A stretch of 64,000 nucleotides of DNA. Source: Verrucomicrobiota bacterium (GTDB taxonomy: Bacteria > Verrucomicrobiota > Verrucomicrobiia > Limisphaerales > UBA11358). Under the pieces are notes generated by a model. The model saw only the letters and a list, made by a program, of their open reading frames with translations. It was not told the origin of the DNA and did not search any database. The DNA is taken from the NCBI GenBank assembly GCA_028872915.1, contig JAGWNY010000004.1, positions 13,137-77,136 of the forward strand, read 5' to 3'. Positions 12,732 through 55,420 of this stretch are shown here, piece after piece. The number at the start of each line of letters is the position of its first letter. Within the stretch, counting starts at the first letter, position 1. The position numbers and the translations under genes are program-made.

Positions 12732-12941
12732 GACCGGCGTCTAAACTAAAAATCCTTGCCCAAAAAATCCGCCGCGCAATCACTGTACCCCCAATGGCAA
12801 CGCGGCTTGGGAAGCTTAAGGTTAAAGCGGATCGGCGCTGATGGCCATCTTTTTTGGAGCGGAAGATAATCCAGGGGCGCGCCAGCCGGGTTTTTCCTTT
12901 CGTTTCGGACAAAATTTGTATTCAATCCGGCCATTTGAATC

Positions 12942-36296: not shown

Positions 36297-36323
36297 GGGA
36301 AAGTCACCCGGGTTGGGACGGTT

Positions 36324-36911
36324 TCATAACAATTTCGTGGCCTCCTCGATTTGCGCGAGGGTTTCGGGCGTGAGGCCGCCGCCGGCTTTGTCGGCGAGGC
36401 CCTGGGCGGCGGCGCTTTTGGCCTCGCGCAGCCTTTGTTGTTCGGCTGCTCCCGCGGCGAGCCGCGCCAGCGCGTTGACGATGGCCCCATAGCGTTCGGG
36501 CTTTTCTTCCAGCAGCGCCTTGAGCCGGGCCGGATTGAAATCTGCCAGCACCTCGTAAATCTGGGAAGCGGCGATATGAAACGTCGCCTCCGAAATTTGC
36601 GAACCCTGGCATTGCTTCACGATTTCGAGGGCGAGGTCGCGGCGCCGGGCCATCATGCCCAGCCGCTCCTCTTCCGCCAGCCGCTCCCGTTCCGCCAGCC
36701 AGTCCAGGTAGCCGCCGTGGCGCCAGATGGTAATACTGCAATCTGACACGTCCTTGATTCCCTGCGCCTCCAGATATTCGATGACTTGCCTGGCCGTCGC
36801 GCCGTCCCGGAGCATTTCATTGACGCGCGTTCGCACCGCGTAGGGCGCGCGCGCAACCTTTCCGTTTCGGGCGGCGCCCAGGCCGAAATAGGCTGCTCGG
36901 GTCCGGCTCAT
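36324..36911 (-). CDS. terminase small-subunit-like DNA-binding protein (Mu gp27/DUF3486-like), full-length copy
   Basis: 195 aa. Located directly upstream of TerL. N-terminal HTH-like VARAPYAVRTRVNEMLRDGATARQVIEYLEAQG and a coiled-coil C-terminus. The assignment is positional plus a loose pattern match. Confidence 0.45.
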   Translation of the reverse strand: MSRTRAAYFGLGAARNGKVARAPYAVRTRVNEMLRDGATARQVIEYLEAQGIKDVSDCSITIWRHGGYLDWLAERERLAEEERLGMMARRRDLALEIVKQCQGSQISEATFHIAASQIYEVLADFNPARLKALLEEKPERYGAIVNALARLAAGAAEQQRLREAKSAAAQGLADKAGGGLTPETLAQIEEATKLL

Positions 36912-37201
36912 GACGATATTGCCCGTTCGTAATGGCGCACACCCGCGGCGTGAATGCGGTAGAGGCGGCCGGTGGTTCCCGGCTCGTCCACGCGGGCAAT
37001 CAAGCCTTCATCGGCCAGAAATTCGGCCTCGCGGCGCACCTCGACCGGGGTGAAATCGTACCGTTCCCGCGCGGCGTCGCGGCCGATGCGCCCGGCGGAC
37101 AGGGCGATGGGGCGGACGGCGTAAAGCTGGAACAGAATTTCCTTCCGGATTTGGTCTTCTCTTGTCATCTGTCTCTTGATTCGTGTTTCATCCATATTCA
37201 T
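36908..37201 (-). CDS. small winged-helix-like protein, copy A
   Basis: 97 aa. ATGA overlap with the downstream gene. ~90% identical to copy B (37876..38139). Confidence 0.5.
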   Translation of the reverse strand: MNMDETRIKRQMTREDQIRKEILFQLYAVRPIALSAGRIGRDAARERYDFTPVEVRREAEFLADEGLIARVDEPGTTGRLYRIHAAGVRHYERAISS

Positions 37202-37207
37202 TCGCGG

Positions 37208-37879
37208 CTAATCATCCGCCTCATCGCTCGTTGGGATAGTCTTGACGCCGAGGCGGCCGGCGATCAAATAGAGGTTGCGGGAAATGCCGTTGATTTTGCG
37301 GTGCAGTTTCCCGCTGTTTCTGGACTGGTCGAACCGCAGGTCCTCGATTTTTTGGCGGACGGCGTCCAGGTCCGCCTTCACTTCGGCCGTGGTGGCGGAT
37401 TGCTCCACGGTCTGAATATCGAGCGGGGGCCGGGCGGTCACGCGGGTGTGCGCCGGACGCCGAAAGAACGCGGCGGCCAGCAGCGCCTTGAGGCGGGCCG
37501 GATTGAAATGCCCCAGCACCTCGTAAACCTGGGAAGCGGCGATATGAAACGCGGCTTCGGAAATCCGGGAGCCCTGGCATTGCTTCACGATTTCGAGGGC
37601 GAGGTCGCGTCGCCGGGCCATCATGGCCAGGCGCTCCTGTTCCGCCGGTGGCTGCTGTTCCGCCAGCCAGTCCTGGTAGCCGCCGTGGCGCCAAACCGAA
37701 ATGTTGCAATCTGACACGTCCTTGATTCCCTGCGCCTCCAGATATTCGATCACTTGCCTGGCGGCCGCGCCGTCCCGGAGCATTTCGTTGACGCGCGTTC
37801 GCACGGCGTAGGGCGCGCGCGCAACCTTTCCGATTCGGGCGCGCCTTGTGCCGCAACAGGCTGTTGGAGTCTCGCTCAT
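37208..37879 (-). CDS. chimeric ORF: N-terminal ~145 aa of the TerS-like protein fused to the C-terminal ~75 aa of the small coiled-coil protein
   Basis: Residues 15-145 are near-identical to 36324..36911. From ...KALLAAAFFRRPAHTRVTARPPLDIQ... onward the sequence parallels the C-terminus of 38155..38478. Confidence 0.6.
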   Translation of the reverse strand: MSETPTACCGTRRARIGKVARAPYAVRTRVNEMLRDGAAARQVIEYLEAQGIKDVSDCNISVWRHGGYQDWLAEQQPPAEQERLAMMARRRDLALEIVKQCQGSRISEAAFHIAASQVYEVLGHFNPARLKALLAAAFFRRPAHTRVTARPPLDIQTVEQSATTAEVKADLDAVRQKIEDLRFDQSRNSGKLHRKINGISRNLYLIAGRLGVKTIPTSDEADD

Positions 37880-38139
37880 GATATTGCCTGTTCGTAATGG
37901 CGCACACCCGGGGCGTGAATGCGGTAGAGGCGGCCGGTGGTTCCCGGCTCGTCCACGCGGGCAATCAAGCCTTCATCGGCCAGAAATTCGGCCTCGCGGC
38001 GCACCTCGGCCGGGGTGAAATCGTACCGTTCCCGCGCGGCGTCGCGGCCGATGCGCCCGGCGGACAGGGCGATGGGGCGGACGGCGTAAAGCTGGAACAA
38101 AATTTCCTTCCGGATTTGGTTCTCTCTGCTCATAAACAA
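37876..38139 (-). CDS. small winged-helix-like protein, copy B
   Basis: 87 aa: ...QIRKEILFQLYAVRPIALSAGRIGRDAARERYDFTPAEVRREAEFLADEGLIARVDEPGTTGRLYRIH... A paralogue of 36908..37201. Confidence 0.5.
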   Translation of the reverse strand: MFMSRENQIRKEILFQLYAVRPIALSAGRIGRDAARERYDFTPAEVRREAEFLADEGLIARVDEPGTTGRLYRIHAPGVRHYEQAIS

Positions 38140-38154
38140 GGTTCGCGGGTTGTG

Positions 38155-38478
38155 CTATTGCTCCTCATCGGCCGTAGAGATGGTCTTGACGCCGAGGCGG
38201 CCGGCGATCAAATAGAGGTTGCGGGAAATGCCGTTCATTTTTTGGTGCAGCTTTTCCCCGCGCCGGGCGGATTCCACCCGCAGGTCCTCGATCTTGCGGT
38301 CCAGCGCGCCGACGCGGGACTCCATTTCGGCCTTGGTGGCAAATTGCTCCACGATTTGGATATCCAGCGGGGGCCGGGCGGTCACGCGGGTTGGCGCCGG
38401 ACGCCGAAAGAACGCGGCGGCGGCGAGCAGCAGGATGCCGGCGTTGATGCAGGTTGAAATGATATAAACCGCCCTCAT
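38155..38478 (-). CDS. small membrane-anchored coiled-coil protein (phage-associated, unknown function)
   Basis: ATG at 38478 gives MRAVYIISTCINAGILLLAAAAFFRR... (a TM anchor) followed by a coiled coil. The upstream part of track ORF 38155..38757 is Arg/Pro-rich and implausible. Confidence 0.45.
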   Translation of the reverse strand: MRAVYIISTCINAGILLLAAAAFFRRPAPTRVTARPPLDIQIVEQFATKAEMESRVGALDRKIEDLRVESARRGEKLHQKMNGISRNLYLIAGRLGVKTISTADEEQ

Positions 38479-38785
38479 AAGAACTGGAGGTTGTGGCGGC
38501 CGGCGCGGCCCCCGCCGGCCCGCCGCAAGGTTCGGGATAAAACGGCGGGCGCGCCGCAGGGTGAATGGCCGGTCAAGGAGATTGGCCCGGCCGGCGGCGC
38601 GCCCATGACGGCCTTTGTAACAGGCACACAACGGCCGTCGAAGCGGGCAAAGGATGGCGCGCGGGCGGCGTCCTGGCCGCGGTCGGCGGGGCGGGCGCGC
38701 AGCGCATGGGGAATCGGCGAATTGAGATTTGTGTTCATCTGCTATTGGGTTCGGCAAAGATGGCGTCCCGGCGGGGAAATTCGCG

Positions 38786-39539: not shown

Positions 39540-40040
39540 TCGGCGGGAACGGACGCCAATTTCAGCACGGATGGGGGGATTTTGGACAGGATGGACGGGA
39601 TGACGGGATGGTTTCACCACGGAGGCACGGGGGACAGGGAGAGAGGCGGTGTTGCTGGCGAGGCGCCAGCAACGGCGCCCGGGGCGGGCGCGGTACCGGG
39701 GGATCACGGAGGGGGATTTTGGACAGGATGATTTCACCACGGAGACACGGAGAACGGAAGAATCACCACAGAGGCACGGAGAACACAGAAAAATTATCAG
39801 ATTGTCAGATTGTCAGATTATCAGATTGTCGGATTAGCAAAGGATGCGAAAATTACCACGGAGGTGCGGACGGAGATTTTGGACAGGATGGCGGGATGGA
39901 CAGGATGATTTCACCACGGAGGGGCGGAGGGACGCGGTGTTGCTGACGGGGCGCCAGCAACGGCGCCCGGGGCGGGCGCGGTACCGGGGGATCACGGAGG
40001 GGGATTTTTGACAGGATGACGGGATGAACAGGATGGAAGA
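39540..40040. repeat. twin-hairpin modular repeat, 2 copies (forward orientation) separated by an ATCAGATTGTCAGATT microsatellite
   Basis: Cores at 39648-39697 and 39936-39985. GGACAGGATG units. Microsatellite at 39792-39832. CACGGAG(G/A)CACGGAG units. Confidence 0.85.
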
Positions 40041-40190
40041 CGATTCGCTTGGCGGCGGAAGCCAGCCGGCCTTGCGCATTGTGAAAAGGGTTTTGGGAAT
40101 CTGATTACGCTGGCGGAGTTGCAGGAGGTTCGTCGCCGGCTGAAAACAGAATTGCCCGCCGCACCCACGGCAGAAACGAGGATTTTCTGT

Positions 40191-40225
40191 GTTTCTTTTA
40201 ATGCATTTGAATTGCATGAAGAAAC
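40191..40225 (+). promoter_or_regulatory. imperfect palindrome upstream of the helicase operon (possible operator)
   Basis: GTTTCTT-tta-ATGCA-tttgaat-TGCAT-g-AAGAAAC, ending 40 bp before ATG 40265. A second hairpin, CAGAAA-n7-TTTCTG, lies at 40171-40189. Confidence 0.3.
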
Positions 40226-40264
40226 ATTGCAACATAACGGCGCTCGCATCAAAACAGGCAAACG

Positions 40265-43200
40265 ATGTCCACTCGCTTTTTTACAAATTACAGCGAACAC
40301 ACGCTGTTCAAAAAATTTCGCGGCGTTTTCGAGAGCAATCCGGACATCGAATGGTTCGATGCCCTTGTCGGCTATCTGCGTTCATCCGGTTATTTTGCGC
40401 TCCGGCCATATCTGGAAAAAGTCCCGCGCATCCGCATCCTCGTCGGCATCAACGTGGATGCCATCATGGCCGACTACCATCGCCGCGGCCTTCTGTTTCT
40501 CGCCGATCCCACCAAGGCGCTGGAGGAATTTCGCGACTGGCTCCGCAAGGACATTCAGGGCGCCGAATACAAGCGCGATGTTGAAACCGGCATCCTCCAA
40601 TTTATTGAAGACGTCATTTCCAAGAAAATCGAATTGCGCGCCCATCCCACCAAGCGCCTCCATGCCAAACTCTACATTTTCCGTCCAAAGGGATTCAACG
40701 AGCACAAGCCGGGCGCCGTCATCACCGGTTCATCCAACCTCACGGCCGCAGGAATCGGCGTGGAGGAACAGGTCAGCAACTACGAATTCAACGTTCTCCT
40801 CCATGATTTTGACGACGTTCAGTTCGCCACCGGCGAATTTGAAAATCTGTGGAAAGATTCCGTTGAAATCCTGCCAAAATTCCTGGAGGAGGTCCGGGAC
40901 GGCACGTATTTGGCGGCGGCTGTCTCGCCGCACGAGCTATATCAGAAGCTCTTGCTCGAATACTTTGGCCAGAGCATCGAATACGACCCGAACGCCATCA
41001 CCGACATGCCGGAGGGTTACAAGCGTTTGAGCTACCAGATGGACGCCGTGACGAGCGGCTTCCGATTGCTGGAAAAGCACGGCGGTTTTTTTCTCGCGGA
41101 TGTCGTCGGCCTGGGCAAGACGATGATCGCCACGCTCATCGCCAAAAAATTCTTTTTCCACAACGGTTTCCCCGAACACCGTTCGCACACCCTCATTGTC
41201 GTGCCGCCGGCCATTGAGGACAGTTGGCGCGAAACGGCCAAGGACCAGTTCCGCCTTGATAATTGCGACATCATCACCAACGGCAGTTTGCACAAGGTCA
41301 AGCGCCCGGAAAAATACGACCTCATCATCGTGGACGAGGCGCACAAATTCCGCAACGACACCGCCGAGGCGTTCGACGAATTGCAGCGCATTTGCAAATC
41401 GCCCACGCAGCACTATCTGCCGGACGGCTCGCGTGCGTCCAAGCGCGTCATTCTTGTCAGCGCCACACCGCTCAACAACCGCCCTGACGACATCCGCAAT
41501 CTGATTTCCCTGTTTCAGGATTTGAAGGATTCCACGTTAAGCGTCGCGAACCTTCAGCGGTTCTTTGCCCAGCGGCAGAAGGAATACCAGGAAGCCCACC
41601 GCCAGTCCGACCCGGAAGAAGCCCGGCGGCGTGTGAAGGATATTTACGAACTCATCCGCACCAAGATCATTTCCGAGGTCACCGTGCGCCGCACCCGCAA
41701 TGACCTCATGGAGCATGACGACTACAAGCAGGATTTGGCGACGCAGGGTGTCATTTTTCCCAAAATAGAACCGCCCCGCAAAATTCTGTATCAACTGCCT
41801 CCACCGCTGGAAGACCTCTATGACCGCACCATGCTCCTGCTGTCGCGGACGGACGGCAAAGGGCTGACCTATAATCGCTACCGGGCCATCGGGTTCTTAA
41901 AGCCGGAGAAGAAGCAAAAGTACCAGAACGCCGACCGCATTTCCTCGCAGCTTGCCACGATCATGCGCACGCTGCTCGTGAAACGCCTCGACAGCAGTTT
42001 TCACGCATTCAAGGAATCTCTCCGTCGTTTCCGCGATGCTACCGGCGTCATGCGGGATATGTTTGCGCGCGGCACGATTTACATCGCTCCAAATCTCAAT
42101 GTGACCGAATTTTTGATGGAAGGCCGCGAGGAAGAACTAATCGCCAAAATCGCCGGGCGGCAGCCCACCGACCCCACCATTGAAATCTGTTCGCCGTCGG
42201 ATTTTCAGCCGGGTCTCACGGAAGGGTTGGAATCCGACTGGCAACGGCTCGATGAGCTTTACACCGAATGGAAGAAAGTCGAGGCCGATCCCAAGCTCGA
42301 CGAATTCCTGGCCCGGCTGGAAGACGGCTTGTTCGACCCGAAAATCAATCGGCAACATAAGCTCGTGGTTTTTTCCGAATCCGAGGAAACCACTTCGTAT
42401 CTCCTGGGCAGGCTGACGAAGGCCGGATACAAGCGCGTGTTCACCGTCAGTTCCAAAAATCGCGCGGAACGGATGCCGGTCGTGCGCGCGAATTTCGACG
42501 CCAATTTCAAGGATCAGGCCAACGACTATGACATCCTGATTTCCACGGAAGTCTTGGCCGAAGGCGTGAATCTGCACCGCGCAAACGTCATCGTGAACTA
42601 CGATACCCCCTGGAATTCCACGCGCCTCATGCAGCGCGTCGGGCGTGTGAACCGCATCGGCTCGATGGCGCCCCATATCTATATTTACAACTTTTATCCC
42701 ACGGCCAAGGTGGACGATGACATTGAACTGAAAAAGAAAGCCATCATGAAGTTGCAGGCGTTCCACACCGCCCTGGGCGAGGACAGCCAGATTTATTCCG
42801 AAACGGAGGAAGTGGACAATTTCGGCCTGTTTGAGCGTTCACTGGAGGAGGAAGAACGCGACCAGCGTTTGGCTTTGCTCATGGAATTGCGCCGGTTCCG
42901 CCAGCAAAACCCGGAAGAATTTCGCCGTATCAAGGGCCTGCCGCTCCGCGCGCGCGTGGGCCGGGCGCATGAGCCGCGCGCCGGCAGCACTGTCACTTTC
43001 ATTCGCAGCAACCGGCGCGATGCCTTTTATCGGATGAAGCCGGACGGCGCGTTGGAAGAAATCAGCCTGCTGGAAGCCGCCGATGAATTTCGCGCGCCCA
43101 ATCCCAGGGAAGAGGCCATCCCGCTCCATGCCGCCCATTACGACCACATCAATTCCGCGCTCGCCAAGTTCAAAGAATCGGTTGTTGCCGAGGCGTTGCA

Positions 43201-43549
43201 GGCCGAGACGGTGGACGCCACACAGGGGCCAAATGAACAGCGGGCGCTACGCTACCTCGATGGATTTTCCAGCCTTCCGTTCGTTAACGAGCAGGAACGC
43301 GCGCTGATTCAGGCTGCCAAAGCTGCCATCCGCCGCGCCCGTTTCCAGAATTTGCAGCGGCAAATTAACCAGCTTCAGCGCTCAACCAAAACCGTGAAGC
43401 TGACGCCGGCCGCGCTTGCGGACAAACTCATGCAAATTCTGCGCACCTATCCATTGTTGCAGGAAGATGACAAACCGGTTGCCGCCGCGCCGCGCGCCTT
43501 TGATACCACGCCGGACATCATTTTGTCGGAATCGTTTGATCAGCCATGA
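40265..43549 (+). CDS. PLD-family (HKD) nuclease domain fused to an SNF2/SF2 helicase-translocase
   Basis: 1094 aa. HAKLYIF (nt 40661-40681) and GSSNLT. ADVVGLGKT (GLGKT at 41108-41122). DEAH (41333-41344). SATPLNN. Helicase-C: STEVLAEGVNLHRANVIVNYDTPWNSTRLMQRVGRVNR. The ~290-aa C-terminal tail is unassigned. Confidence 0.85.
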   Translation: MSTRFFTNYSEHTLFKKFRGVFESNPDIEWFDALVGYLRSSGYFALRPYLEKVPRIRILVGINVDAIMADYHRRGLLFLADPTKALEEFRDWLRKDIQGAEYKRDVETGILQFIEDVISKKIELRAHPTKRLHAKLYIFRPKGFNEHKPGAVITGSSNLTAAGIGVEEQVSNYEFNVLLHDFDDVQFATGEFENLWKDSVEILPKFLEEVRDGTYLAAAVSPHELYQKLLLEYFGQSIEYDPNAITDMPEGYKRLSYQMDAVTSGFRLLEKHGGFFLADVVGLGKTMIATLIAKKFFFHNGFPEHRSHTLIVVPPAIEDSWRETAKDQFRLDNCDIITNGSLHKVKRPEKYDLIIVDEAHKFRNDTAEAFDELQRICKSPTQHYLPDGSRASKRVILVSATPLNNRPDDIRNLISLFQDLKDSTLSVANLQRFFAQRQKEYQEAHRQSDPEEARRRVKDIYELIRTKIISEVTVRRTRNDLMEHDDYKQDLATQGVIFPKIEPPRKILYQLPPPLEDLYDRTMLLLSRTDGKGLTYNRYRAIGFLKPEKKQKYQNADRISSQLATIMRTLLVKRLDSSFHAFKESLRRFRDATGVMRDMFARGTIYIAPNLNVTEFLMEGREEELIAKIAGRQPTDPTIEICSPSDFQPGLTEGLESDWQRLDELYTEWKKVEADPKLDEFLARLEDGLFDPKINRQHKLVVFSESEETTSYLLGRLTKAGYKRVFTVSSKNRAERMPVVRANFDANFKDQANDYDILISTEVLAEGVNLHRANVIVNYDTPWNSTRLMQRVGRVNRIGSMAPHIYIYNFYPTAKVDDDIELKKKAIMKLQAFHTALGEDSQIYSETEEVDNFGLFERSLEEEERDQRLALLMELRRFRQQNPEEFRRIKGLPLRARVGRAHEPRAGSTVTFIRSNRRDAFYRMKPDGALEEISLLEAADEFRAPNPREEAIPLHAAHYDHINSALAKFKESVVAEALQAETVDATQGPNEQRALRYLDGFSSLPFVNEQERALIQAAKAAIRRARFQNLQRQINQLQRSTKTVKLTPAALADKLMQILRTYPLLQEDDKPVAAAPRAFDTTPDIILSESFDQP

Positions 43550-46500
43550 CGCGCGACCAAATCCAGTCCACGCTCCGGCAGGAATACAACCAGCAACGCT
43601 GGGTCAGCTTGCTTCGGGAAATCCTGCCGGGCACGGACGTTTTTGCCAGCCCGCAGCCCGTCCCTTCAACCGCGACAAACGTGCCGGAGGCGGTTCAGCT
43701 TGCCCGCGTCCGGCTCGGCGACCGCAAACAACTCGCCGTGTTGCAGGTTCGCGTGGGCGACCGGATTGACTTGCTTCGCAATCGCGTCGGCTTGCGCAAC
43801 CTCGTCGCCCGTTTCATTGACCAGGCCGAATACCACGGCGTGCTGGCGGTGTTCCTCGCGCCACAGTCCGATTTCCGCTTCACTTTCGCCGCGCGCATGG
43901 CGGAATTTGACGACGAAGGCAACCTCATCCGCCGCGAAACCGCGCCGCGCCGCTATACCTATGTTCTTGGCCCCAATGAAGCCTGCCGCACCGCCGCCGA
44001 ACGATTCCTGAAATTGTCGGAAAAGGGATTGGCCGCCACGATGGATGATGTCATTGAGGCGTTTTCCGTCGAAAAATTGAATCAGGAATTTTTCGCCGAT
44101 TTTTCGCGCGCGTTCGAGCGTGTCAAATCCGAAATCCAAAAGCGGAACAGGTGGAAGGAAAAAGTCGCAAAGGAGGAATCGCAGACGCTTCTCAATCGCC
44201 TCCTGTTTTTGTATTTCGTCCAGCGCAAAGGCTGGCTCAACCGGCAGCGCGATTATCTTTTTCGCAATTTCGTCCGTTTCGATAAGGACACGCCGGCCAA
44301 AACCACGTTCCTCGACGGTTTTCTGCGCCCCCTGTTCATCAAATTGAGCACCGAAGGTTCGCAGGCTGATATTCCCGGCCACGATTTGCCGTTTCTCAAC
44401 GGCGGCTTGTTCGCGGATGAATACGGCGACGAACAGCACGACGAAGCCGTTCGCCGCCATTTCGATCTTCAAGTCGGCAACGAAGTTTTCCGCTCCGTGT
44501 TTGAGGATTTGCTTGAACGCTACAATTTCACCATCCAGGAAGATTCACCCACCAATTACGAGGTCGCCATTGACCCCGAAATGCTCGGCCAGATTTTTGA
44601 GGAACTCATCCTTACCAGCGAGGAAAGCGAAACGGCGGGCAAATCCAAGCGGCATGACACCGGCGGCCACTATACGCCCCGGCCAATCGTTCACTATCTC
44701 TGCCGCGACAGTCTGGCCGCGTGGTTGGAAAGCCAGCCGCCATTCATCGGCAAACCGGATGCGGCCGGCCGCGTGCGCAAATTGCTTGCCCTCGACGCCA
44801 CTGAAGGCATTGACGACGACACACGCAATGCGTTGAAAGACATTCTCAAGCCGGAGGAAGCCGCCGTGTTGCTGGACCGCCTGTTTGAACTCCGCGCTTG
44901 TGATCCGGCTGTCGGTTCGGGCGCATTCCCAATGGGTTTGCTGCACGAATTAGTGAATCTTGCCCGGCTGTGCGCCACCCGCGCCGCCGGCAAAGACCCG
45001 GTCCTGGGCGACCGCTCCTGGCTCTACACCACCAAGAAGCGGATTATTGAGCGCGTCATCTATGGCGTGGACATTCAGCCGCAGGCCGTGGACATCTGCA
45101 AACTCCGCCTCTGGTTGAGCCTCATGGTGGATTACGAATTGAGCGCCGACCCGGAAAATTGCGAAGCCACGTCATTCCGCAAGGCATTGAAGGAAATTGA
45201 GCCGCTGCCCAACCTCGATTTCAAAATCCGCCGCGCAAACTCGCTGGTGGATTATATCCACGGCGAGCCGGTGGAATTGAAAAAACTGTCGTCCGAAACC
45301 GGCGCGGGTCTCGCGCTGTCCAAATTGAGCGCGGCCAAGCGCGACTTTTTCAACGCCCGCACCGCCGCCGCCAAGCGCAAACTCCGCCTCGACATCTACG
45401 ACAACATCACTGAACTCGCGAAGATTGAGCTTACCCGCGCCCGCACGGATGCCGCCGGCCTGGGATTTGCGTTGCATGAACGCGACGCCGAGCGCGTCGC
45501 CGAAATTGAAAAATGCCTGCGGGAAATAGCCCGCACTGCCGCGTTGGTCCGCGATGCGCGAAAAATGCGCGCGCAGGCCCAGGAGGACGCGCTGGAGCGC
45601 ATCCGCACAGAATTCGACGACCCGGACAAGCCCACGTTCGTCTGGCAATTCGATTTTGCCGAGGTGTTCCACCGCGAGGAAACGCCGCGCGGTGATTCCT
45701 TGCTCCCTGCCGGGAAACCGGAAAAGCCCGTCGCAAACGGCACGCGCAATGGTTTCGACATGCTCATTGGAAATCCACCATTTATTCGTATTCAAGTTCT
45801 TAAAAAAACTGCCCCAAACTTGGTTAACTACTATAAGACGCGTTACAACAATTCTGCCGGAAAGGGAAATTACGACCTCTATGTCGTCTTCGTAGAAAGA
45901 GGTATCGAACTGTTGCAGCAGAATGGCCAATTGGCTTTCATCGTTCCTCATTCATTTTTGAATACAGAATACGGTGAACCTATTCGCACATTTATCTCCG
46001 GAAATAAGCACGTTAGGCACATTGTTCACTTTGGCCAACACCAGATTTTCCCGAAAGCAACAAATTACGTTTGTCTCTTGTTCTTATCAAAGGCTGGAGA
46101 ATCGCATTTTGATTTCGACAGAGTTGATAATTTCAAGGCGTGGTTAGACACGCACGAAGGAACAAGTGCGAAATTTACTGCCGCACAGATCGGTGCCGGT
46201 GAATGGAATATTACCGTAGGGCACGATGCCGGTTTCTTTGAGCGATTGAAGGCGCTTCCCATAAAACTCGGCAATGTAGCTGAAATGTTTGTTGGACTGC
46301 AAACGAGTGCCGATACTGTTTTTCTTTTTAAGGACACGAAAAAGTCAGACAAGATGCTTACGCGCGTCCTCTCAAAGGAACTAAATCGGGAGGTAGAACT
46401 AGAATCCGCTTTACTCAAACCCGTTGTTCGCAGCGGCGAGATTGGTCGTTATTGGGCAAAGGCAAGCGCACTGGTCCTATTTCCATACAAACTGGTCGGT

Positions 46501-47292
46501 GGAAAGCATTCGCTAATCCCGGAAAAGGAGTTTCGAGACAAATACAGCAAAGCATGGAAATATCTATGCGACAACAAAGACCTTCTCGCATCGCGCGAAC
46601 ACGGCAAATTTGCGGAGTCGGGTTGGTATCAGCTCTATCCCAAAAATTTGGACGTATGGGAACAGTCGAAATTGATGTTGCCGTATATGATTACTGAGTT
46701 GTCAGCATGGTATGATGAAGGTGGTAGCTACTTCGTCAATGTGACAACGGGTGGTTTTGGTCTCACGCTCTCTGATAAGCGTTTCAGTGCCAAATTTGTA
46801 ACCGCGTTGCTAAACTCGACGCTGGAGGATTGGTTCCTTAAAAAAGTTAGCCGCAGATTTCGAGGGGGCTATTTCGGGGCGAACAAGCAGTTCTTGGTTC
46901 AACTCCCAATACCAGAAGTTCGGGGAGAGCAGTGTGAAATCATCGAATCGGTTGTCACGCTCCTGTTATGGCTTCACGCCCGCAAAGCAGCGCGGGAAGA
47001 TTCACGCGAGACGACCGGCGCGCCACTGATTGCCGCCTTCATGGAGCAATGGGTGAACGCGCTGGTTTACGAATTATTTTTCTCGAAGGAAATTCATGAT
47101 GCCGGCCTTCAGTTCTTCGATTTGATTCAGTCGCTCAATCTGTCGCCACTGGAATCGTTCGCCGAGTCCGAACGGTTGCCGGAGTTGCAGAAGATTTTCA
47201 AAACCACCTACGCTTCCGACCACAAACTGCGCCAGGCGTTGTATCGTCTCGGCTCGTTGGATTTAGTCCGCACCATTGAGGGCAAAGCATGA
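43546..47292 (+). CDS. large Eco57I/type IIG-like N6-adenine DNA methyltransferase with a specificity (TRD) region
   Basis: 1248 aa. Motif I CDPAVGSGAFP (44899-44931). Motif IV GNPPF (45769-45783). Long helical region before the MTase fold and a TRD-like C-terminal half. The N-terminal ~165 aa are unassigned. ATGA overlap with the helicase stop. Confidence 0.85.
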   Translation: MTRDQIQSTLRQEYNQQRWVSLLREILPGTDVFASPQPVPSTATNVPEAVQLARVRLGDRKQLAVLQVRVGDRIDLLRNRVGLRNLVARFIDQAEYHGVLAVFLAPQSDFRFTFAARMAEFDDEGNLIRRETAPRRYTYVLGPNEACRTAAERFLKLSEKGLAATMDDVIEAFSVEKLNQEFFADFSRAFERVKSEIQKRNRWKEKVAKEESQTLLNRLLFLYFVQRKGWLNRQRDYLFRNFVRFDKDTPAKTTFLDGFLRPLFIKLSTEGSQADIPGHDLPFLNGGLFADEYGDEQHDEAVRRHFDLQVGNEVFRSVFEDLLERYNFTIQEDSPTNYEVAIDPEMLGQIFEELILTSEESETAGKSKRHDTGGHYTPRPIVHYLCRDSLAAWLESQPPFIGKPDAAGRVRKLLALDATEGIDDDTRNALKDILKPEEAAVLLDRLFELRACDPAVGSGAFPMGLLHELVNLARLCATRAAGKDPVLGDRSWLYTTKKRIIERVIYGVDIQPQAVDICKLRLWLSLMVDYELSADPENCEATSFRKALKEIEPLPNLDFKIRRANSLVDYIHGEPVELKKLSSETGAGLALSKLSAAKRDFFNARTAAAKRKLRLDIYDNITELAKIELTRARTDAAGLGFALHERDAERVAEIEKCLREIARTAALVRDARKMRAQAQEDALERIRTEFDDPDKPTFVWQFDFAEVFHREETPRGDSLLPAGKPEKPVANGTRNGFDMLIGNPPFIRIQVLKKTAPNLVNYYKTRYNNSAGKGNYDLYVVFVERGIELLQQNGQLAFIVPHSFLNTEYGEPIRTFISGNKHVRHIVHFGQHQIFPKATNYVCLLFLSKAGESHFDFDRVDNFKAWLDTHEGTSAKFTAAQIGAGEWNITVGHDAGFFERLKALPIKLGNVAEMFVGLQTSADTVFLFKDTKKSDKMLTRVLSKELNREVELESALLKPVVRSGEIGRYWAKASALVLFPYKLVGGKHSLIPEKEFRDKYSKAWKYLCDNKDLLASREHGKFAESGWYQLYPKNLDVWEQSKLMLPYMITELSAWYDEGGSYFVNVTTGGFGLTLSDKRFSAKFVTALLNSTLEDWFLKKVSRRFRGGYFGANKQFLVQLPIPEVRGEQCEIIESVVTLLLWLHARKAAREDSRETTGAPLIAAFMEQWVNALVYELFFSKEIHDAGLQFFDLIQSLNLSPLESFAESERLPELQKIFKTTYASDHKLRQALYRLGSLDLVRTIEGKA

Positions 47293-49145
47293 GAATCACC
47301 GGCATCGAAATCGCGAACTATCGCGGCTTCGCCGGCGACTCATTCAAGTTGTCTCTTGAAAAGGGCGAAAACCTGCTGGTCTATGGCGAGAACGGCGCCG
47401 GCAAATCGTCGTTTTTCAACTCGCTTAAAGATTTTCTCCACGCCGCGACCAGCAAAAACGTCAACATTGAACAACGGCGCAACCGTGACAATCCAACTGC
47501 CGCGCCGGCCATTCGCATCTCCACGGTTAGTAATCCAGCAACCGAGTGGACAGCCGTTGCGCGTGGCCAGGACGCAGATAACTGGCGCGCGTTGGACGAC
47601 GGCAAAGGCTTTCTCGATTACCGGCAGTTGCTGCGTTTTTACAATGCACCCCAAGACAGTTCGGGACGCATCGAGTTGTTTGATCTCCTGCTAAAGGGAA
47701 TGTTGGCGAATCATCGGATGGAGGTTTCTGGCACTCCGACCTTTCTATCCGAATGGCGGGCTATCAAACATCGAAGGGATTACTACTTTTACGGGGACAG
47801 TGAACGGCAGGAGTTAAAACAGCGAGTCGCACGATTCAACACCGCATTCAAAGACGCCGCAGTTAAGCTGGCAACCCGTGCGTCGGAGTTGCTCCATGAG
47901 TTTGATCCGAACATCGGGATTGCCTTCATACCGGAGAAGGATGCTGATTTTACCTGGTATCCCAAACACGTCAGCGACCCGGAGTATTTTGCTGAAATTA
48001 CGCGCCCCCAAATGGCATCCGTGACAAACTATCACGAGATGTTCAACGAAGCGCGCCTTTCGGCGATGGCTGTATGCCTCTTTTTCGCCGCCCTGGAAAC
48101 CTGTCCGATTACTGGCCCGCGCCTGATGATGTTGGACGACGTGCTCATCGGCTTGGATATGGGCAACCGCCGCATTGTGATGAACCTCGTGCAGCGATTG
48201 TTCCGCGACTGGCAGATCATTATTCTGACCTACCATAAGGCGTGGTTTGAAATCCTAAAAGCTCGTGTCAAGGTTGGCGCATGGGGCGGCCATTGGCGTA
48301 GCGTCGTCCTACGGCCGGAGAAATGCAATAAAACCGGACTTGTCGCCATCGCGTATGCAGATAGCGGCACCGCGTTGGAAACCGCCGATCTCTGCCTTGC
48401 ACGGCGCGACCACAAAGCCGCCGCCGTCTATGCCCGCACCGCGCTGGAATCCGTTCTCCACAAACACGCCGACCGGCTGCATCTGTCTGTCCAGTTCAAA
48501 AAGAATCGCCTCGACCTCGACACCGATGATTTTTTGAATCCATTCGAGAAGCGGTTCGAGCATCTGACCGACCCGCTAAAACGCACGCAGGCCGAGGGGT
48601 TGGTAGCCGAGTTGCGCTTTGTGCGGCGCGCCGTCTTAAATGCGTTCGCCCACGCCGATGAAATCAGCGAGGACGAAATCGCTGGCGAAGTGGATCACGG
48701 CATAAAAGTGGTTCGCGATTTTGAGGCATTCCTTGCGCCGCTGCAAAAAGCAGACTTTTCCAAGATCATATCGGATGCCAAGCCCGCCGTGCCGCAATTG
48801 CTTGCGCAGGCTCGCCAGCACGCCGCCGCCGGCAATCACAAGGCCGCCGGCGTGTCGCTGGCGCACGCGACCGCACTCTTCGTCACGGAATATGCGGAAG
48901 CAATCGGTCTCATGCTTCCATTCAAACGCAATCCTTCAATCGGCGACCTGTTCAAGATCGTTTTTCCTGAAGATGCGATGGACGCCGCCGAACAGCGCGC
49001 CTTTCGCCGTTTGATTCCTTACTTTTTGGGCAGCTACAAGCCAAAAAAGTTCGATCCGGCGTTGATGGATGAAACCATCCGCCTGATTTTGCACACCTGT
49101 TATGGACAACTGCTACATGCGTTGGCAAAACGGGCGTTGCCGTAA
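47289..49145 (+). CDS. ABC/SMC-type (RecF/PrrC-like) ATPase with an alpha-helical, HEPN/DUF4145-like C-terminal region
   Basis: 618 aa. MRITGIEIANYRGF..., Walker A GENGAGKSS (47385-47411), Walker B LMMLDDVLIGLD (48123-48158). The C-terminal 260 aa are helical and include LRFVRRAVLNAFAH (48612-48653). ATGA overlap with the methylase stop. Confidence 0.8.
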   Translation: MRITGIEIANYRGFAGDSFKLSLEKGENLLVYGENGAGKSSFFNSLKDFLHAATSKNVNIEQRRNRDNPTAAPAIRISTVSNPATEWTAVARGQDADNWRALDDGKGFLDYRQLLRFYNAPQDSSGRIELFDLLLKGMLANHRMEVSGTPTFLSEWRAIKHRRDYYFYGDSERQELKQRVARFNTAFKDAAVKLATRASELLHEFDPNIGIAFIPEKDADFTWYPKHVSDPEYFAEITRPQMASVTNYHEMFNEARLSAMAVCLFFAALETCPITGPRLMMLDDVLIGLDMGNRRIVMNLVQRLFRDWQIIILTYHKAWFEILKARVKVGAWGGHWRSVVLRPEKCNKTGLVAIAYADSGTALETADLCLARRDHKAAAVYARTALESVLHKHADRLHLSVQFKKNRLDLDTDDFLNPFEKRFEHLTDPLKRTQAEGLVAELRFVRRAVLNAFAHADEISEDEIAGEVDHGIKVVRDFEAFLAPLQKADFSKIISDAKPAVPQLLAQARQHAAAGNHKAAGVSLAHATALFVTEYAEAIGLMLPFKRNPSIGDLFKIVFPEDAMDAAEQRAFRRLIPYFLGSYKPKKFDPALMDETIRLILHTCYGQLLHALAKRALP

Positions 49146-49358
49146 ATGAAACCGGAATCCCACTGCTTCCCCATGCTCGCCGTGTCGCCGGAAAAGCAGA
49201 GGCCGGTGGAGCGATTGGTTGACCGCATTCTCGCGGCGAAGGCGAAAGACGCGGGCGCGGACGCCAGCGGGTTGGAGCGGGAGATAGACGAGTTGGTGTA
49301 TGCGCTGTACGGGCTGACGCCGGAGGAAATCAAGATTGTGGAGGGAGGGGCGAAATGA
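49146..49358 (+). pseudogene. 70-codon ORF equal to the C-terminal tail of a type IIG / specificity-type methylase (probable gene remnant)
   Basis: ...FPMLAVSPEKQRPVERLVDRILAAKAKDAGADASGLEREIDELVYALYGLTPEEIKIVEG. This is the characteristic last ~60 aa of many RM methylase/TRD proteins. The ATG follows the ATPase TAA directly (TAAATG). Confidence 0.45.
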
Positions 49359-49615
49359 AACCCGAACTCTCAAAACACGTTCAGGAAGAAATGGGGCGGC
49401 GTGGCATCCCGCTGGCCGTGGTGGAATCGGTGCTGGCCGCACCCGCGCAAAAAGTGCCTGAACACGGCGAAGTGGTATGTTATCAATCGAAAGTCTAGAT
49501 CAACCGGAAGCCGTATCTGGTGCGGGTGATGGTGAACGAGACGGCGACACCGCCAAAAGCGGTGACGGTTTATCGCACGAGTAAAATCAAGAAATACTGG
49601 AAAGCGACAACATGA
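49355..49615 (+). pseudogene. DUF4258-type toxin gene interrupted by an in-frame TAG
   Basis: MKPELSKHVQEEMGRRGIPLAVVESVLAAPAQKVPEHGEVVCYQSKV-TAG(49496-49498)-INRKPYLVRVMVNETATPPKAVTVYRTSKIKKYWKATT. Both halves match the DUF4258 pattern. Not in the ORF track because both pieces are under 60 aa. Confidence 0.7.
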
Positions 49616-49809
49616 AAGTGACCTACGATCCCGAAGTGGACGTGCTGCGGATTCTGTTCCGCGACGTGCCGGTTGAGGAAAGCGACGAGGACAAGCCCGG
49701 CGTGATTCTCGATTATGACAAGGACGGCAATGTCGTGGGAATGGAGGTCCTCAACGCGTCGAAGCGTATCGAGAACCCGCGTGGCGTGGATTATGCCGTG
49801 ACCGCGTGA
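49612..49809 (+). CDS. DUF2283-type antitoxin-like protein
   Basis: 65 aa: MKVTYDPEVDVLRILFRDVPVEESDEDKPGVILDYDKDGNVVGMEVLNASKRI. ATGA overlap with the DUF4258 reading frame. Confidence 0.75.
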   Translation: MKVTYDPEVDVLRILFRDVPVEESDEDKPGVILDYDKDGNVVGMEVLNASKRIENPRGVDYAVTA

Positions 49810-49811
49810 CG

Positions 49812-49870
49812 CGCGTGGTTGACCTCATCCTGGCGGCGAAGCAGCGCGATGCGGCGGCGGACGCCAGCCT
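49812..49870 (+). pseudogene. second, diverged copy of the methylase-tail fragment
   Basis: RVVDLILAAKQRDAAADAS, compared with RLVDRILAAKAKDAGADAS at 49209-49270. About 80% nucleotide identity over ~60 bp, judged by eye. Confidence 0.35.
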
Positions 49871-52009: not shown

Positions 52010-52330
52010 TGAGGACGAGGACGGGGGGATTTTGGACAGGATGGACGGGATGACGGGATGAAAGACAAAGGCGGAACAATTCAGCCGCGGATTTTTTGAT
52101 GAAAGCGGTGTTGCTGACGGGGCGTCAGCAACGGCGCCCGTGGGCGGGCGCGGTACCGGGGGATCACGGAGGGGGATTTTGGACGGGATGACGGGATGGA
52201 CAGGATGAAAAACAATGGCGGAATAATTCAGCCGCGGATTTGGAGGGGGAAGGCGGTGTTGCTGACGGGGCGTCAGCAACGGACGATGCGATCTGGCACA
52301 GCGCGGAGCGTTCTGGAGGGCGGAGCCGGC
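52010..52330. repeat. twin-hairpin modular repeat, 1 full + 1 truncated copy (forward)
   Basis: Cores at 52107-52156 (full) and 52255-52281 (first hairpin only). GGACAGGATG units and GGCGGAA(C/T)AATTCAGCCGCGGATTT modules. Confidence 0.85.
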
Positions 52331-52850: not shown

Positions 52851-52990
52851 AGTGTTTACATTTTCCTGGCTGCTCCGGCGTGTGTCAAGCGGCGGCACGC
52901 TTCGCAGACGGGCAGATATTTTTGTCTTTGATGCTTTTCCAGTTCTCGAAGTATTTGCCACAAACAGTCAAATCCACCAAGCTGGTTGCA

Positions 52991-53851
52991 ATGACGCGCG
53001 AACAATTTCTTCAGAAGCTTCAGGCGCACGCGGCAACATTCGGAAAGGCAGTGGCCACGAATGAAGGCGACTGGATTATCAAAGGGTTCATTGACGTCTA
53101 TCGCCGTATTTACACGATTTCAGTGGACACCAAAATCGTCTCGAAGGTGCTCGAATTGCTGCTGTTTCCGATGTTTGTCGAGTTTGCAAAAGCGAACCAC
53201 CTGAAAATTGATTTGTGTCCGCAGCAGAATTTTTATCCCGACCTGACGTTCACGCATGAGCCGACGGGCCTTAAATTTGCCGTGGACATCAAGAGCACGT
53301 ATCGCACCGGCGACACCGAGGCAAACGGCATGACCCTCGGCGCGTTCACCGGCTATTTCAGAAAACGCGACAGCAGCAAGAACACGCTTTTCCCTTACAG
53401 CCAGTATGCCGGGCATTTTGTGCCCGGCGTTATTTACTCCAAGTGCGATGACGCCGCCGACGAGCGCAAGCAGTTCACCCTCGACGACCTGCCCAAGATT
53501 CCATCCGTCATCAAAAACTTCCAATTCTTCGCACAGCCGAAATATCGCATCGGCTCGTCGCGGCCGGGCAGCGGAAACACGAAGAACATCGGTTCCGTGA
53601 CGAAAATCGAGCAACTGGTCAACGGGACCGGGCCGTTCACGGCCCTGGGCGAGGAAATTTACGACGATTATTGGATGTTTTATTTGACACGCGACATGGC
53701 CAGGGAATTGTCCATCGAAAGGCCATATACCGATTTGAAAAGCTATCTCGAGTACAAAAAGCGCGGCGTGGACAAACTGCGCGCCCACGAAAGGGAAATC
53801 GCCCGGCTCGCCGAAGATGAGGCCGGCCCGGCCGAGGAGGAAAGTGAATGA
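52991..53851 (+). CDS. EcoRV-family type II restriction endonuclease
   Basis: Colinear with my recollection of R.EcoRV: FYPDLTF (PD at 53237-53242), FAVDIKSTY (D-I-K at 53285-53293), LFPYSQYAGHF, GSGNTKNIGS, DDYWMFY. ATG at 52991 is preferred to the track start at 52880. Confidence 0.8.
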   Translation: MTREQFLQKLQAHAATFGKAVATNEGDWIIKGFIDVYRRIYTISVDTKIVSKVLELLLFPMFVEFAKANHLKIDLCPQQNFYPDLTFTHEPTGLKFAVDIKSTYRTGDTEANGMTLGAFTGYFRKRDSSKNTLFPYSQYAGHFVPGVIYSKCDDAADERKQFTLDDLPKIPSVIKNFQFFAQPKYRIGSSRPGSGNTKNIGSVTKIEQLVNGTGPFTALGEEIYDDYWMFYLTRDMARELSIERPYTDLKSYLEYKKRGVDKLRAHEREIARLAEDEAGPAEEESE

Positions 53852-54974: not shown

Positions 54975-55420
54975 TTCGGGGCGTGAAGAGGAGGACGAGG
55001 GGATTTTGGACAGGATGGACAGGATGGACAGGATGATTTCACCGCAGAGGCACGGAGGACAGGGAGAGAGGCGGTGTTGCTGACGGGGCGTCAGCAACGG
55101 CGCCCGTGGGTGGGCGCGGTACCGGGGGATCACGGAGGGGGGTTTTAGACAGGATTAACAGGATGGACGGGATGAAGAACAAAGGCGGAACAATTCAGCC
55201 GCGGATTTTTTGATGAAAGCGGTGTTGCTGACGGGGCGCCAGCAACGGCGCCCGTGGGCGGGCGCGGTACCGGGGGATCACGGAGGGGGATTTTGGACAG
55301 GATGACGGGATGGACAGGATGAAAGACAATGGCGGAATAATTCAGCCGCGGATTTGGAGGGGGAAGGCGGTGTTGCTGACGGGGCGTCAGCAACGGCGCC
55401 CGTGGGCGGGCGCGATACCG
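54975..55420. repeat. twin-hairpin modular repeat, 3 copies (forward)
   Basis: Cores at 55073-55123, 55221-55271 and 55369-55419, interleaved with GGACAGGATG units and GGCGGAA(C/T)AATTCAGCCGCGGATTT modules. Confidence 0.9.

Follow-up and report, generated by a model that had tools for sequence, protein, structure and literature searches.

A conserved three-gene cassette with PLD-SNF2, Type IIG-like methylase, and ABC-HEPN-like proteins, a predicted variant of ATP-dependent restriction-modification

A cassette of three genes is described here from a 64,000-nucleotide (nt) stretch of a Verrucomicrobiota genome (GenBank assembly GCA_028872915.1, contig JAGWNY010000004.1, positions 13,137 to 77,136 of the forward strand), referred to below as the window. 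Gene 1 encodes a PLD-SNF2 protein, gene 2 a Type IIG-like N6-adenine methyltransferase (MTase) with a target-recognition domain (TRD), and gene 3 an ABC ATPase that continues into a HEPN-like domain. As read from its sequence, the cassette is a widespread and unnamed three-gene variant of ATP-dependent restriction-modification (R-M) with a probable PrrC-like third component. That the trio would work as a self-contained, horizontally mobile, three-component R-M-like defense cassette, dependent on ATP and based on methylation, is a prediction in which we have moderate confidence.

Conservation and Distribution of the Trio

The trio is a conserved neighborhood, shared by at least eight phyla. An earlier note, which had read the three genes from the bare letters as a candidate undescribed defense system, proposed to look for such a neighborhood in other genomes, and it is readily found. 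Gene 3 homologues of 72%, 42%, 37%, 33% (P0104), and 33% (P0112) identity were placed on their contigs, and the order PLD-SNF2, Eco57I/TaqI_C, ATPase is the same on all five (L001, L003, L005, L007, and L009). The flanks are unrelated: Bil and GmrSD genes in L001, SIR2 and HerA-like DUF87 genes in L003, conjugation genes (TrwB) in L005 and L007, and an integrase in L009. The setting of L001, the closest long contig, is typical of a defense island, with the Bil (ubiquitin-like conjugation) operon upstream (1-2417) and the GmrSD-family Type IV gene directly downstream (11900-13609).

When the gene 3 alignment was scanned against one genome per GTDB species, at least 320 relatives were confirmed among the 600 pattern matches listed, and the best 80 were examined. 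The gene 2 tail was found upstream on the same strand in 73 of these 80 loci by tblastn, and the ATPase usually began 0-30 nt from the gene 2 match. A gene 1-like PLD-SNF2 open reading frame (ORF) was present in 45 of the 80. At the level of sequence, the gene 2/gene 3 junction is thus shown to be the tightest link within the cassette.

The gene 3 family comprises 178 clusters (50% identity) at E <= 1e-30 in an exhaustive HMMER search. Its hosts belong to at least eight phyla and include Verrucomicrobiota, Acidobacteriota, Bacteroidota, Cyanobacteriota, Chlorobiaceae, Desulfobacterota, Planctomycetota (Phycisphaerales, Sedimentisphaerales), and Binatota. A cultured host is the human oral Prevotella sp. 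oral taxon 299 F0039 (L094), where the identity is 53% for gene 1, 26% for gene 2, which is colinear, and 22% for gene 3. No relative of gene 3 was found in phage records, and the plasmid collection held no near-identical DNA.

Some of the loci carry additional genes. In Prevotella F0039, one embedded ORF of 464 amino acids (aa) lies between genes 1 and 2 (L094 12274-13668), and in L009 a PIN toxin pair lies between genes 2 and 3 (9277-9938). The cassette seems to attract embedded genes as a hotspot, a behavior also reported for Hma and BREX.

Gene 1 Carries the Nuclease and the Motor

The gene 1 protein matches the Pfam families PLDc_2, SNF2-rel_dom, and Helicase_C, and among PDB sequences its matches are to the helicase lobes of Chd1, DDM1, INO80, and RapA. 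HAKLYIF begins at H133 (40661). The single HKD motif (H133, K135) and GSSN (G155-N158) are invariant in gene 1 and its five syntenic homologues, which are ~35-89% identical, and so are GLGKT, DExH, and QRVGRVNR in the same six-sequence alignment. Because there is one HKD per chain, the sequence implies, by analogy, that a dimer of gene 1 would form one PLD active site. A dimer building a single site in this way has been described for BfiI, SauUSI, and MANTIS MtsD (bioRxiv 10.64898/2026.09.23.753747).

The top PADLOC match of gene 1 is to an 'HKD+Snf2' model, C3a139 (2e-42). C3a139 was considered as a named system and rejected, since it traces to a cluster of Type III CRISPR accessory genes (Shah 2018).

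Gene 2 Is a Methylase Derived from Type IIG Enzymes

In Pfam, gene 2 matches Eco57I (1e-39), N6_Mtase, and TaqI_C (4.9e-08, above the Pfam cut-off). It is colinear with the PADLOC REase_MTase_IIG models (4e-83, 3e-65) over the N-terminal, MTase, and TRD parts, and its PDB sequence matches are the BseCI, CamA-type, and TaqI methylases. The gamma-class N6-adenine motifs are present as CDPAVGSGAFP and GNPPF, and DPAxGSGAF and NPP are invariant across the gene 2 alignment. The position expected for the D...ExK nuclease motif reads QVR in the window, EIK in L001 (the 72%-identical relative), and VIH or VIY in L003, L005, L007, and L009; the alignment of the N-terminal domain has no conserved acidic or lysine catalytic column. 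By these motifs gene 2 is shown to be Type IIG-derived, with the methylase motifs and the TRD kept and the PD-(D/E)xK catalytic residues lost. Since HKD and GSSN are invariant in gene 1 and gene 2 shows no conservation at its D...ExK position, the alignments show the predicted nuclease of the cassette to be carried by gene 1 rather than by gene 2.

The TRD has a history of its own. Between gene 2 and its L001 relative the TRD is 38% identical and the other parts 81-88%; between gene 2 and the L009 relative the TRD is 45% identical and the other parts 26-33%. The minimum of guanine + cytosine (GC) content in the window, 0.469 at 46001-47000, coincides with the TRD. Given this mosaic of identities and the GC trough, the TRD behaves as an R-M specificity module: it is shown by comparison to be swapped between relatives in the mosaic pattern of R-M specificity domains, and the specificity is thus predicted to vary. 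Programmed inversions of such TRDs beside PLD-SNF coding sequences have been reported (PMC9881135).

Beyond the TRD, gene 2 ends in a family-specific tail, which is 33-64% identical among relatives, with RxIEGK invariant at its extreme end. We propose that this tail is a docking module for gene 3. A Shine-Dalgarno-like site, GAGGG, lies 5' of the gene 3 start at 47278-82, within the last gene 2 codons.

Gene 3 Combines an ABC ATPase with a HEPN-like Domain

In sequence searches with the third protein, Pfam, PADLOC, NCBIfam, and PDB sequences recognize only its P-loop region (Pfam SMC_N/AAA_15; AAA_13 covers the P-loop only, E 0.0013). An AlphaFold2 model built from 100 homologues has a pLDDT of 89.8. 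With Foldseek, the first ~350 residues of the model match best the SMC, Rad50, cohesin, and condensin heads and the Septu/retron PtuA (E 5e-10 to 1e-7). The ABC landmarks are Walker A, GENGAGKSS (aa 33-41, 47385-47411), a signature-like NEARLSA (aa 253-259, 48045-48065), Walker B, LMMLDD (aa 279-284, 48123-48140), and the H-loop, TYH (aa 314-316). All four are invariant among the 100 sequences, an alignment that reaches down to ~30% identity and includes the short form linked to TIR proteins (see below). No long coiled coil is seen: Walker A and the signature are separated by an insert of ~185 aa, whose longest helix in the model spans aa 170-202.

The earlier note had described gene 3 as an ABC ATPase followed by a helical tail. 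The ATPase stands, and the tail proves to begin with a HEPN-like domain bearing invariant polar residues. Indeed, R383 (48435-37), E387 (48447-49), L450, H455 (48651-53), and E467 (48687-89) are the same in all 100 sequences. When 24 family members were scanned singly, 11 matched Pfam DUF4145 (best 6e-4) and other members HEPN and RiboL-PSP-HEPN; the protein from the window matches HEPN_Swt1 at 0.0093, and a precomputed Abi_C match exists for two relatives. DUF4145 belongs to the HEPN superfamily according to a 2013 survey (PMC3710099). A profile search of a large protein database with the C-terminal alignment returned the same family only. We assign the tail domain as HEPN-like (DUF4145-type) with moderate confidence. 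By sequence, gene 3 would probably have the ABC-HEPN architecture of the anticodon nucleases PrrC and RloC, and an RNase function is predicted.

The C-terminal extension that follows (~130 aa) is restricted to the long form of the protein; matches of the ~470-520-aa form end near residue 480. It is 17-68% identical among relatives, below the ABC core in nearly all, and thus fast-evolving.

Pairing of the Tail and the ATPase with Other Effectors

In Poribacteria and Latescibacterota, the short-form ATPase is overlapped by a TIR-TPR protein, whose last ~340 residues are a TaqI_C TRD and a gene 2-type tail (L019, L022, and L010 in Table 1). This TIR-TPR-TRD protein is without a methylase. On a Nostoc plasmid, a stand-alone TRD ORF is found with the ATPase. 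Because the pair occurs both with TIR-TPR and as a stand-alone TRD ORF with the ATPase, the TRD-tail and ABC-HEPN proteins appear to behave as a module that is combined with different effectors. More tentatively, the gene 2 TRD-tail and the ABC-HEPN ATPase may be a portable sensor or switch that reads DNA sequence and is plugged into varied effectors, an idea that we consider possible rather than probable. If it is true, the trio would be a single complex joining restriction, aimed at DNA, and abortive infection, aimed at RNA, and there would be a new way to couple a restriction-type specificity domain with suicide effectors.

Proposed Mechanism and Alternatives

We propose that the TRD of gene 2 would read a short, probably asymmetric sequence, and that N6-methyladenine (m6A) on the host copies would mark self. 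At unmodified sites on incoming DNA, gene 2 would recruit gene 1, which would dimerize to give one PLD active site; translocation by the SNF2 motor with ATP would then be followed by a cut, broadly as in Type ISP, Type III, SauUSI, and MANTIS MtsD. Gene 3 would bind the gene 2 tail, with its ATP binding and hydrolysis coupled to the state of the complex. The role that we prefer for gene 3 is PrrC-like, in which the HEPN RNase would be silenced by the intact methylase-nuclease complex. A phage anti-restriction factor that disables the complex would free the RNase and lead to a shutdown of translation, as a second line of defense. Nearly as likely is that gene 3 serves methylation and restriction as their loader or activator, which is compatible with the PrrC-like role.

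Several observations weigh against this proposal. The HEPN assignment depends on Pfam matches below threshold. When the C-terminal domain was compared on its own with the PDB by Foldseek, no match was significant (the best local match, 2q00, had a probability of 0.85, and Csx1 HEPN entries had E>1), and a profile search of PDB sequences gave nothing relevant. The arginine of the Rx4-6H motif is not fixed in the family, being Rx7H here, Rx6H in the short form, and missing in some members. Walker B ends in DD and not DE, so that hydrolysis may be slow. Roughly a third of the ATPase loci are without a gene 1 homologue, and the ATPase has other partners there. Finally, strict coupling of gene 2 and gene 3 is not universal, because several loci hold other genes between them: in about a dozen, 1.3-4.7 kb of other genes intervene.

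What, then, could gene 3 do if it is not an RNase? It could be an obligatory loader or activator, like MtsA or BrxC, that clamps DNA and loads gene 2 onto its site, so that methylation and restriction alike would need it, with the HEPN-like domain as a non-catalytic module for dimerization or nucleic-acid binding. The head is of the DNA-clamping SMC/Rad50 type, gene 3 is coupled tightly to the TRD-bearing tail and not to the nuclease gene, and methylation depends on an ATPase in MANTIS, a system with an HKD-helicase effector. The variable HEPN arginine would also fit, as some HEPN families are non-catalytic (PMC3710099). However, R383, E387, H455, and E467 are invariant across the 100 sequences, as expected of an active site, and the same ATPase stands beside TIR-TPR-TRD proteins with no methylase to load. 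We hold a purely loading role to be a serious but doubtful alternative to the PrrC-like role.

The link between gene 3 and the rest can also be questioned. Genes 1 and 2 might form a complete two-gene ATP-dependent R-M system, and gene 3 might be an independent abortive-infection gene at a hotspot 3' of the methylase, with no physical or regulatory link. The insertions at the gene 2/gene 3 junction (the L009 toxin pair, the dozen loci with gaps) are in keeping with such a hotspot, as is the ORF embedded in Prevotella F0039, there between genes 1 and 2. Embedded defense genes are common, as in Hma, BREX, and Type I loci (bioRxiv 10.1101/2024.01.29.577857), and a PLD-SNF and Type IIG pair has been described with no mention of an ATPase (PMC9881135). 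Yet a hitch-hiker would not be expected to track one particular tail. The gene 2 tail precedes the ATPase in 73 of the 80 loci, in most cases with an overlap or at 30 nt or less; invariant codons of gene 2 contain the Shine-Dalgarno site of gene 3; and the tail and the ATPase travel together even where the N-terminal part is TIR-TPR. We regard an unlinked gene 3 as improbable.

Least probable is that the cassette serves non-degradative, BREX-like exclusion, acts as an epigenetic or regulatory module, or is a remnant in decay: the lost nuclease motif of gene 2, its partial matches to PglX and DrmMI models, and the debris of another methylase gene just downstream could be read that way, but the three ORFs are intact, the HKD, Walker A, DEAH, and motif VI of gene 1 are invariant among relatives ~35% identical, neither PglZ, BrxC, nor DrmA/DrmB is found within or next to the cassette, whether in the window or at five other loci, and the swapping of the TRD suggests selection on specificity.

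Relation to Known Systems

None of the three proteins reaches a family cut-off in PADLOC v2, a search that the earlier note had suggested, or in NCBIfam r20, and neither library places all three genes in a defined system. No publication naming or testing the trio was found, and it may have been described earlier in ABC ATPase classification work (Krishnan et al. 2020). The claim that the system is undescribed holds in that the trio is unnamed. It does not extend to the combination as such, since an HKD nuclease and SF2 helicase with an adenine methylase and an ATPase are established in MANTIS/Gao_RL, CxC-ABC/Pbe, and DISARM class 1, and a PLD-SNF coding sequence adjoining a Cj0031-like Type IIG one has been mentioned in passing (PMC9881135). 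Functionally, the cassette comes nearest to MANTIS in the logic of the system and to Type ISP in its order of functions; gene 3 comes nearest to PrrC and RloC, and the ancestry of gene 2 points to Type IIG.

In MANTIS (MtsA-MtsB-MtsC-MtsD, formerly Gao_RL or BREX-related type 2), the effector is an N-terminal single-HKD PLD nuclease joined to an SF2 helicase, as in gene 1 (MtsD was compared by description only), and a separate second ATPase belongs to the system. However, that ATPase is an ORC/Cdc6-clade AAA+ protein (DUF499) and gene 3 is an ABC ATPase; a small co-regulator, MtsB, is required in MANTIS and has no counterpart in the cassette, which lacks a fourth gene; and MANTIS is without a HEPN-like domain. 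The MANTIS methylase is of a DUF1156-type family, unlike the Eco57I/TaqI_C methylase of gene 2. Membership in MANTIS was rejected: there is no DUF499 MtsA (gene 3 being ABC by Pfam and fold), gene 2 is of Eco57I type, and no fourth gene is present. The second ATPase of MANTIS is needed both for methylation and for the HKD-helicase effector (bioRxiv 10.64898/2026.09.23.753747).

PrrC, which accompanies the Type Ic system EcoprrI, and RloC resemble gene 3 in their N-terminal Rad50/SbcC-like ABC NTPase and in the placement of the gene inside an R-M operon; their C-terminal HEPN RNase would correspond to the HEPN-like domain of gene 3. The catalytic triad of PrrC, R320/E324/H356, follows an R-x3-E ... 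H pattern. The invariant R383/E387/H455 of gene 3 has the same pattern. In spite of this likeness, no sequence orthology is detectable, the HEPN-like domain of gene 3 is nearest to DUF4145, gene 3 has the additional 130-aa extension, and the partners are a PLD-SNF2 protein and a Type IIG-like methylase rather than HsdMSR. In PrrC and RloC, the ABC-HEPN fusions are tied to R-M and the R-M complex holds the RNase latent; that the architecture would accompany R-M systems was predicted in 2013 (PMC3710099).

The Type ISP enzymes (LlaGI, LlaBIII) share with the cassette the order of nuclease, ATP motor, gamma-class adenine methylase, and TRD. They recognize an asymmetric site, methylate one strand, and cleave in a manner coupled to translocation. 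By analogy, all three properties are likely in the cassette too. The earlier note had likened the trio to a Type ISP enzyme split in two, and this is a fair functional analogy but not a family relationship. In a Type ISP enzyme, a single chain holds all the parts, the nuclease being of the Mrr-type PD-(D/E)xK kind and the motor Type I-like, whereas the cassette has two polypeptides with a stop codon between them, a PLD nuclease, an SNF2 motor, and a third, ABC-HEPN protein.

With the Type IIG enzymes (Eco57I, MmeI, BpuSI, Cj0031), gene 2 is colinear through the N-terminal domain, the helical linker, the Eco57I-type MTase, and the TaqI_C/MmeI-type TRD. It differs in that the catalytic nuclease residues are not conserved, leaving no active PD-(D/E)xK motif in the same polypeptide, and in that the usual '...LYGLTEEEI' C-terminal tail is replaced by the family-specific tail preceding the ATPase gene. 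Gene 2 would also rely, unlike these enzymes, on a separate nuclease-motor protein.

The remaining candidates are more distant. DISARM class 1 (DrmD, DrmMI, DrmA, DrmB, DrmC) combines an SNF2 helicase with an N6-adenine methylase and a PLD nuclease, and there are partial matches to the DrmD and DrmMI models; however, PLD and SNF2 are fused in gene 1, and DISARM has no ABC-HEPN protein. Gene 1 was rejected as an equivalog of DrmD (NF038317, 152 bits against a cut-off of 610). No DrmA/DrmB (DUF1998) was called within ~10 kb of the trio in L001, L003, L005, L007, and L009, and none was found by Pfam among 20 window ORFs around the trio, where the DrmA/DrmB-specific models were not run on the flanks. 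DISARM was rejected with its core pair, DrmA and DrmB, not present. BREX was rejected likewise, with no PglZ or BrxC in the window locus or the five others and 70 bits for BREX_1_MTaseX against a cut-off of 500. The absence of DISARM, BREX, and Type I/III partner genes had been noticed already from the bare sequence, and it is borne out.

Hma, also named BREX-related (type 1), consists of HmaA, a helicase with a C-terminal restriction endonuclease (REase), HmaB, an m5C (5-methylcytosine) methylase, and HmaC, a DUF499 ATPase. Its name suggested a match, but it was rejected for the kinds of HmaB and HmaC and because the match of gene 1 to HmaA is confined to the helicase C lobe (4e-28); HmaB and HmaC are not among the top PADLOC matches of genes 2 and 3. 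The CxC-ABC/PbeABCD systems have a fusion of an HKD nuclease and an SF2 helicase beside an ABC ATPase, sometimes with a methylase, and in PADLOC genes 1 and 3 match PbeA and PbeC in part. They differ in the long coiled-coil ABC ATPase with a CxC zinc hook, the DndE partner, and the cytosine methylases (PMC10853773). Pbe was rejected, gene 3 being without a long coiled coil and no DndE-like gene being present at the window or the compared loci. MADS was rejected because the mandatory mad6, mad7, and mad8 are absent from the three-gene cassette; mad3 matches the P-loop region only (9e-12), and MAD2 scores 25 bits against a cut-off of 720.

Layout of the Locus and Its Neighbors

The features of the cassette are collected in Table 1. 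The ORF limits and strand, both ATGA overlaps, and the positions of the HAKLYIF, GLGKT, DEAH, CDPAVGSGAFP, GNPPF, Walker A, and LMMLDD motifs given in the earlier note agree with direct reading and with the translations. Pfam likewise agrees with its PLD nuclease and SNF2 motor in gene 1 and its Eco57I-like methylase and TRD in gene 2, and the QVR at a position not conserved in relatives accords with its view that gene 2 lacks a nuclease of its own. The overlaps read gccATGAcg at the gene 1/gene 2 junction and gcATGAga at the gene 2/gene 3 junction. From them the earlier note had concluded that the genes are obligately co-expressed; the overlaps are real, and co-expression is only an inference from them, with scans for sigma-70 promoters and terminators giving results at chance level. 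Rfam has nothing in 39.3-55.6 kb.

Table 1. Positions of the features of the cassette in the window and of the TIR-linked variant in three other loci
Feature	Position	Strand	Basis
Leader, probable promoter region 5' of gene 1	40031..40264	+	Sequence reading
Gene 1, PLD(HKD)-SNF2 protein, 1094 aa; proposed ATP-dependent restriction subunit	40265..43549	+	ORF, Pfam, PADLOC, syntenic homologues
Gene 1 PLD nuclease domain, aa 1-210; HAKLYIF 40661-40681, GSSN aa 155-158	40265..40894	+	Six-sequence alignment
Gene 1 SNF2/SF2 motor, aa 256-860; GLGKT 41108-41122, DEAH 41333-41344, QRVGRVNR motif VI	41030..42844	+	Alignment, PDB sequence matches
ATGA stop/start overlap, genes 1/2	43546..43549	+	Read directly; 4-nt overlap also in L001, L005, L007
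Gene 2, Type IIG-like N6-adenine methyltransferase and TRD without catalytic nuclease motif, 1248 aa; proposed modification/specificity subunit	43546..47292	+	Pfam, PADLOC, PDB sequence matches
Gene 2 N-terminal nuclease-like domain, aa 1-165, D...(D/E)xK position degenerate	43546..44040	+	Alignment
Gene 2 MTase core, aa 431-860; motif I CDPAVGSGAFP 44899-44931, motif IV GNPPF 45769-45783	44836..46125	+	Alignment
Gene 2 TRD, aa 861-1140, hypervariable swapped segment	46126..46965	+	Segment identities, TaqI_C match
Gene 2 family-specific C-terminal tail, aa 1141-1248, ends ...VRTIEGKA; proposed gene 3 docking module	46966..47289	+	Alignment, tblastn
ATGA overlap, genes 2/3, with GAGGG 47278-82 upstream	47289..47292	+	Read directly; overlap also in L001, L003, L005, L007
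Gene 3, ABC ATPase, HEPN-like domain, and C-terminal helical extension, 618 aa	47289..49145	+	AlphaFold2 model, alignments
Gene 3 SMC/Rad50-type ABC head, aa 1-350	47289..48338	+	Foldseek, alignment
Gene 3 HEPN-like (DUF4145-type) helical domain, aa 351-490	48339..48758	+	Alignments, weak Pfam matches
Gene 3 C-terminal helical extension, aa 491-618	48759..49142	+	Family comparison
TIR-TPR-TRD ORF, then ATPase ORF	L019 6582-10004, 9998-11419		
TIR-TPR-TRD ORF, then ATPase ORF	L022 7380-10004, 9998-11407		
TIR-TPR-TRD ORF, then ATPase ORF	L010 6576-10004, 10001-11419		

The lower GC that had been noticed by eye is confirmed, with 0.47-0.61 per 1-kb window over the trio against 0.58-0.66 in the 6 kb upstream. 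This low GC, and the position of the cassette between prophage packaging genes and the host transketolase gene, suggest that the cassette is of foreign origin.

To the left of the trio, on the minus strand, lie a portal gene (33499-35004), a large terminase gene (34938-36296), and a small-terminase-like gene (36324-36911); after these come two more tandem copies (37208-37879 and 38155-38757) with a spacing of ~965 bp and segments 78-97% identical; the packaging module spans 33499-38757 in all. To the right are a DUF2283 gene (49612-49809), a DUF5131 gene, an EcoRV-type R-M pair, and then the host transketolase gene. The R-M pair, which bears out the R-M genes claimed for this neighborhood, joins, with a 4-nt overlap, a restriction endonuclease of the EcoRV family (Pfam 1.6e-102) to a D12-class adenine methylase (52880-54783). 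Because of these neighbors on its two sides, the cassette is located in a defense island at the edge of a prophage.

Directly after the gene 3 stop begins a 70-aa ORF (49146-49358), which encodes only the C-terminal tail typical of another TaqI_C-type methylase (...VERLVDRILAAK...LVYALYGLTPEEIKIVEG). A second partial copy of that tail, 76% identical, is found 600 nt downstream (49806-49868), and a short ORF and the DUF2283 gene lie between the two copies. The region 49146-49868 looks like the remains of a displaced methylase gene that is broken up by the insertion of a small pair of genes.

The EcoRV-type pair stands between two hairpin repeat arrays (52024-52310 and 55000-55420). The 34-nt GC-rich hairpin core GGTGTTGCTGRCGRGGCGYCAGCAACGGCGCCCG, within units of ~148 nt, has 8 copies in the window with 0 expected by chance, at 31136 and 33269 on the - strand and at 39648, 39936, 52107, 55073, 55221, and 55369 on the + strand, and its orientation tracks the local gene strand. 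The copies flank the block of the trio and the EcoRV-type pair, and two are inside the prophage. The element has no Rfam match. The repeats had been taken to bound the island, but as borders or att sites they were rejected, because the core also occurs within the neighboring prophage; they are a dispersed REP/MITE-like element.

Significance

Current defense finders would label this locus as a lone 'Type IIG R-M' gene, and would miss both that the methylase is without a nuclease and that it has two partners. For this reason, methylome and defense-system censuses probably mislabel the gene 2 family. The cassette would offer a second, independent test case for the idea from MANTIS of a dedicated ATPase as the gate both for methylation and for an HKD-helicase effector. 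It may also add a case to the PrrC principle, in which phage anti-restriction proteins that act on a restriction complex meet an RNase standing guard over it; in the literature cited here, PrrC/EcoprrI is the characterized case. A natural experiment is at hand in other phyla, where the same pair of TRD-tail and ATPase is wired to TIR, and the swapped TRDs would supply new m6A specificities.

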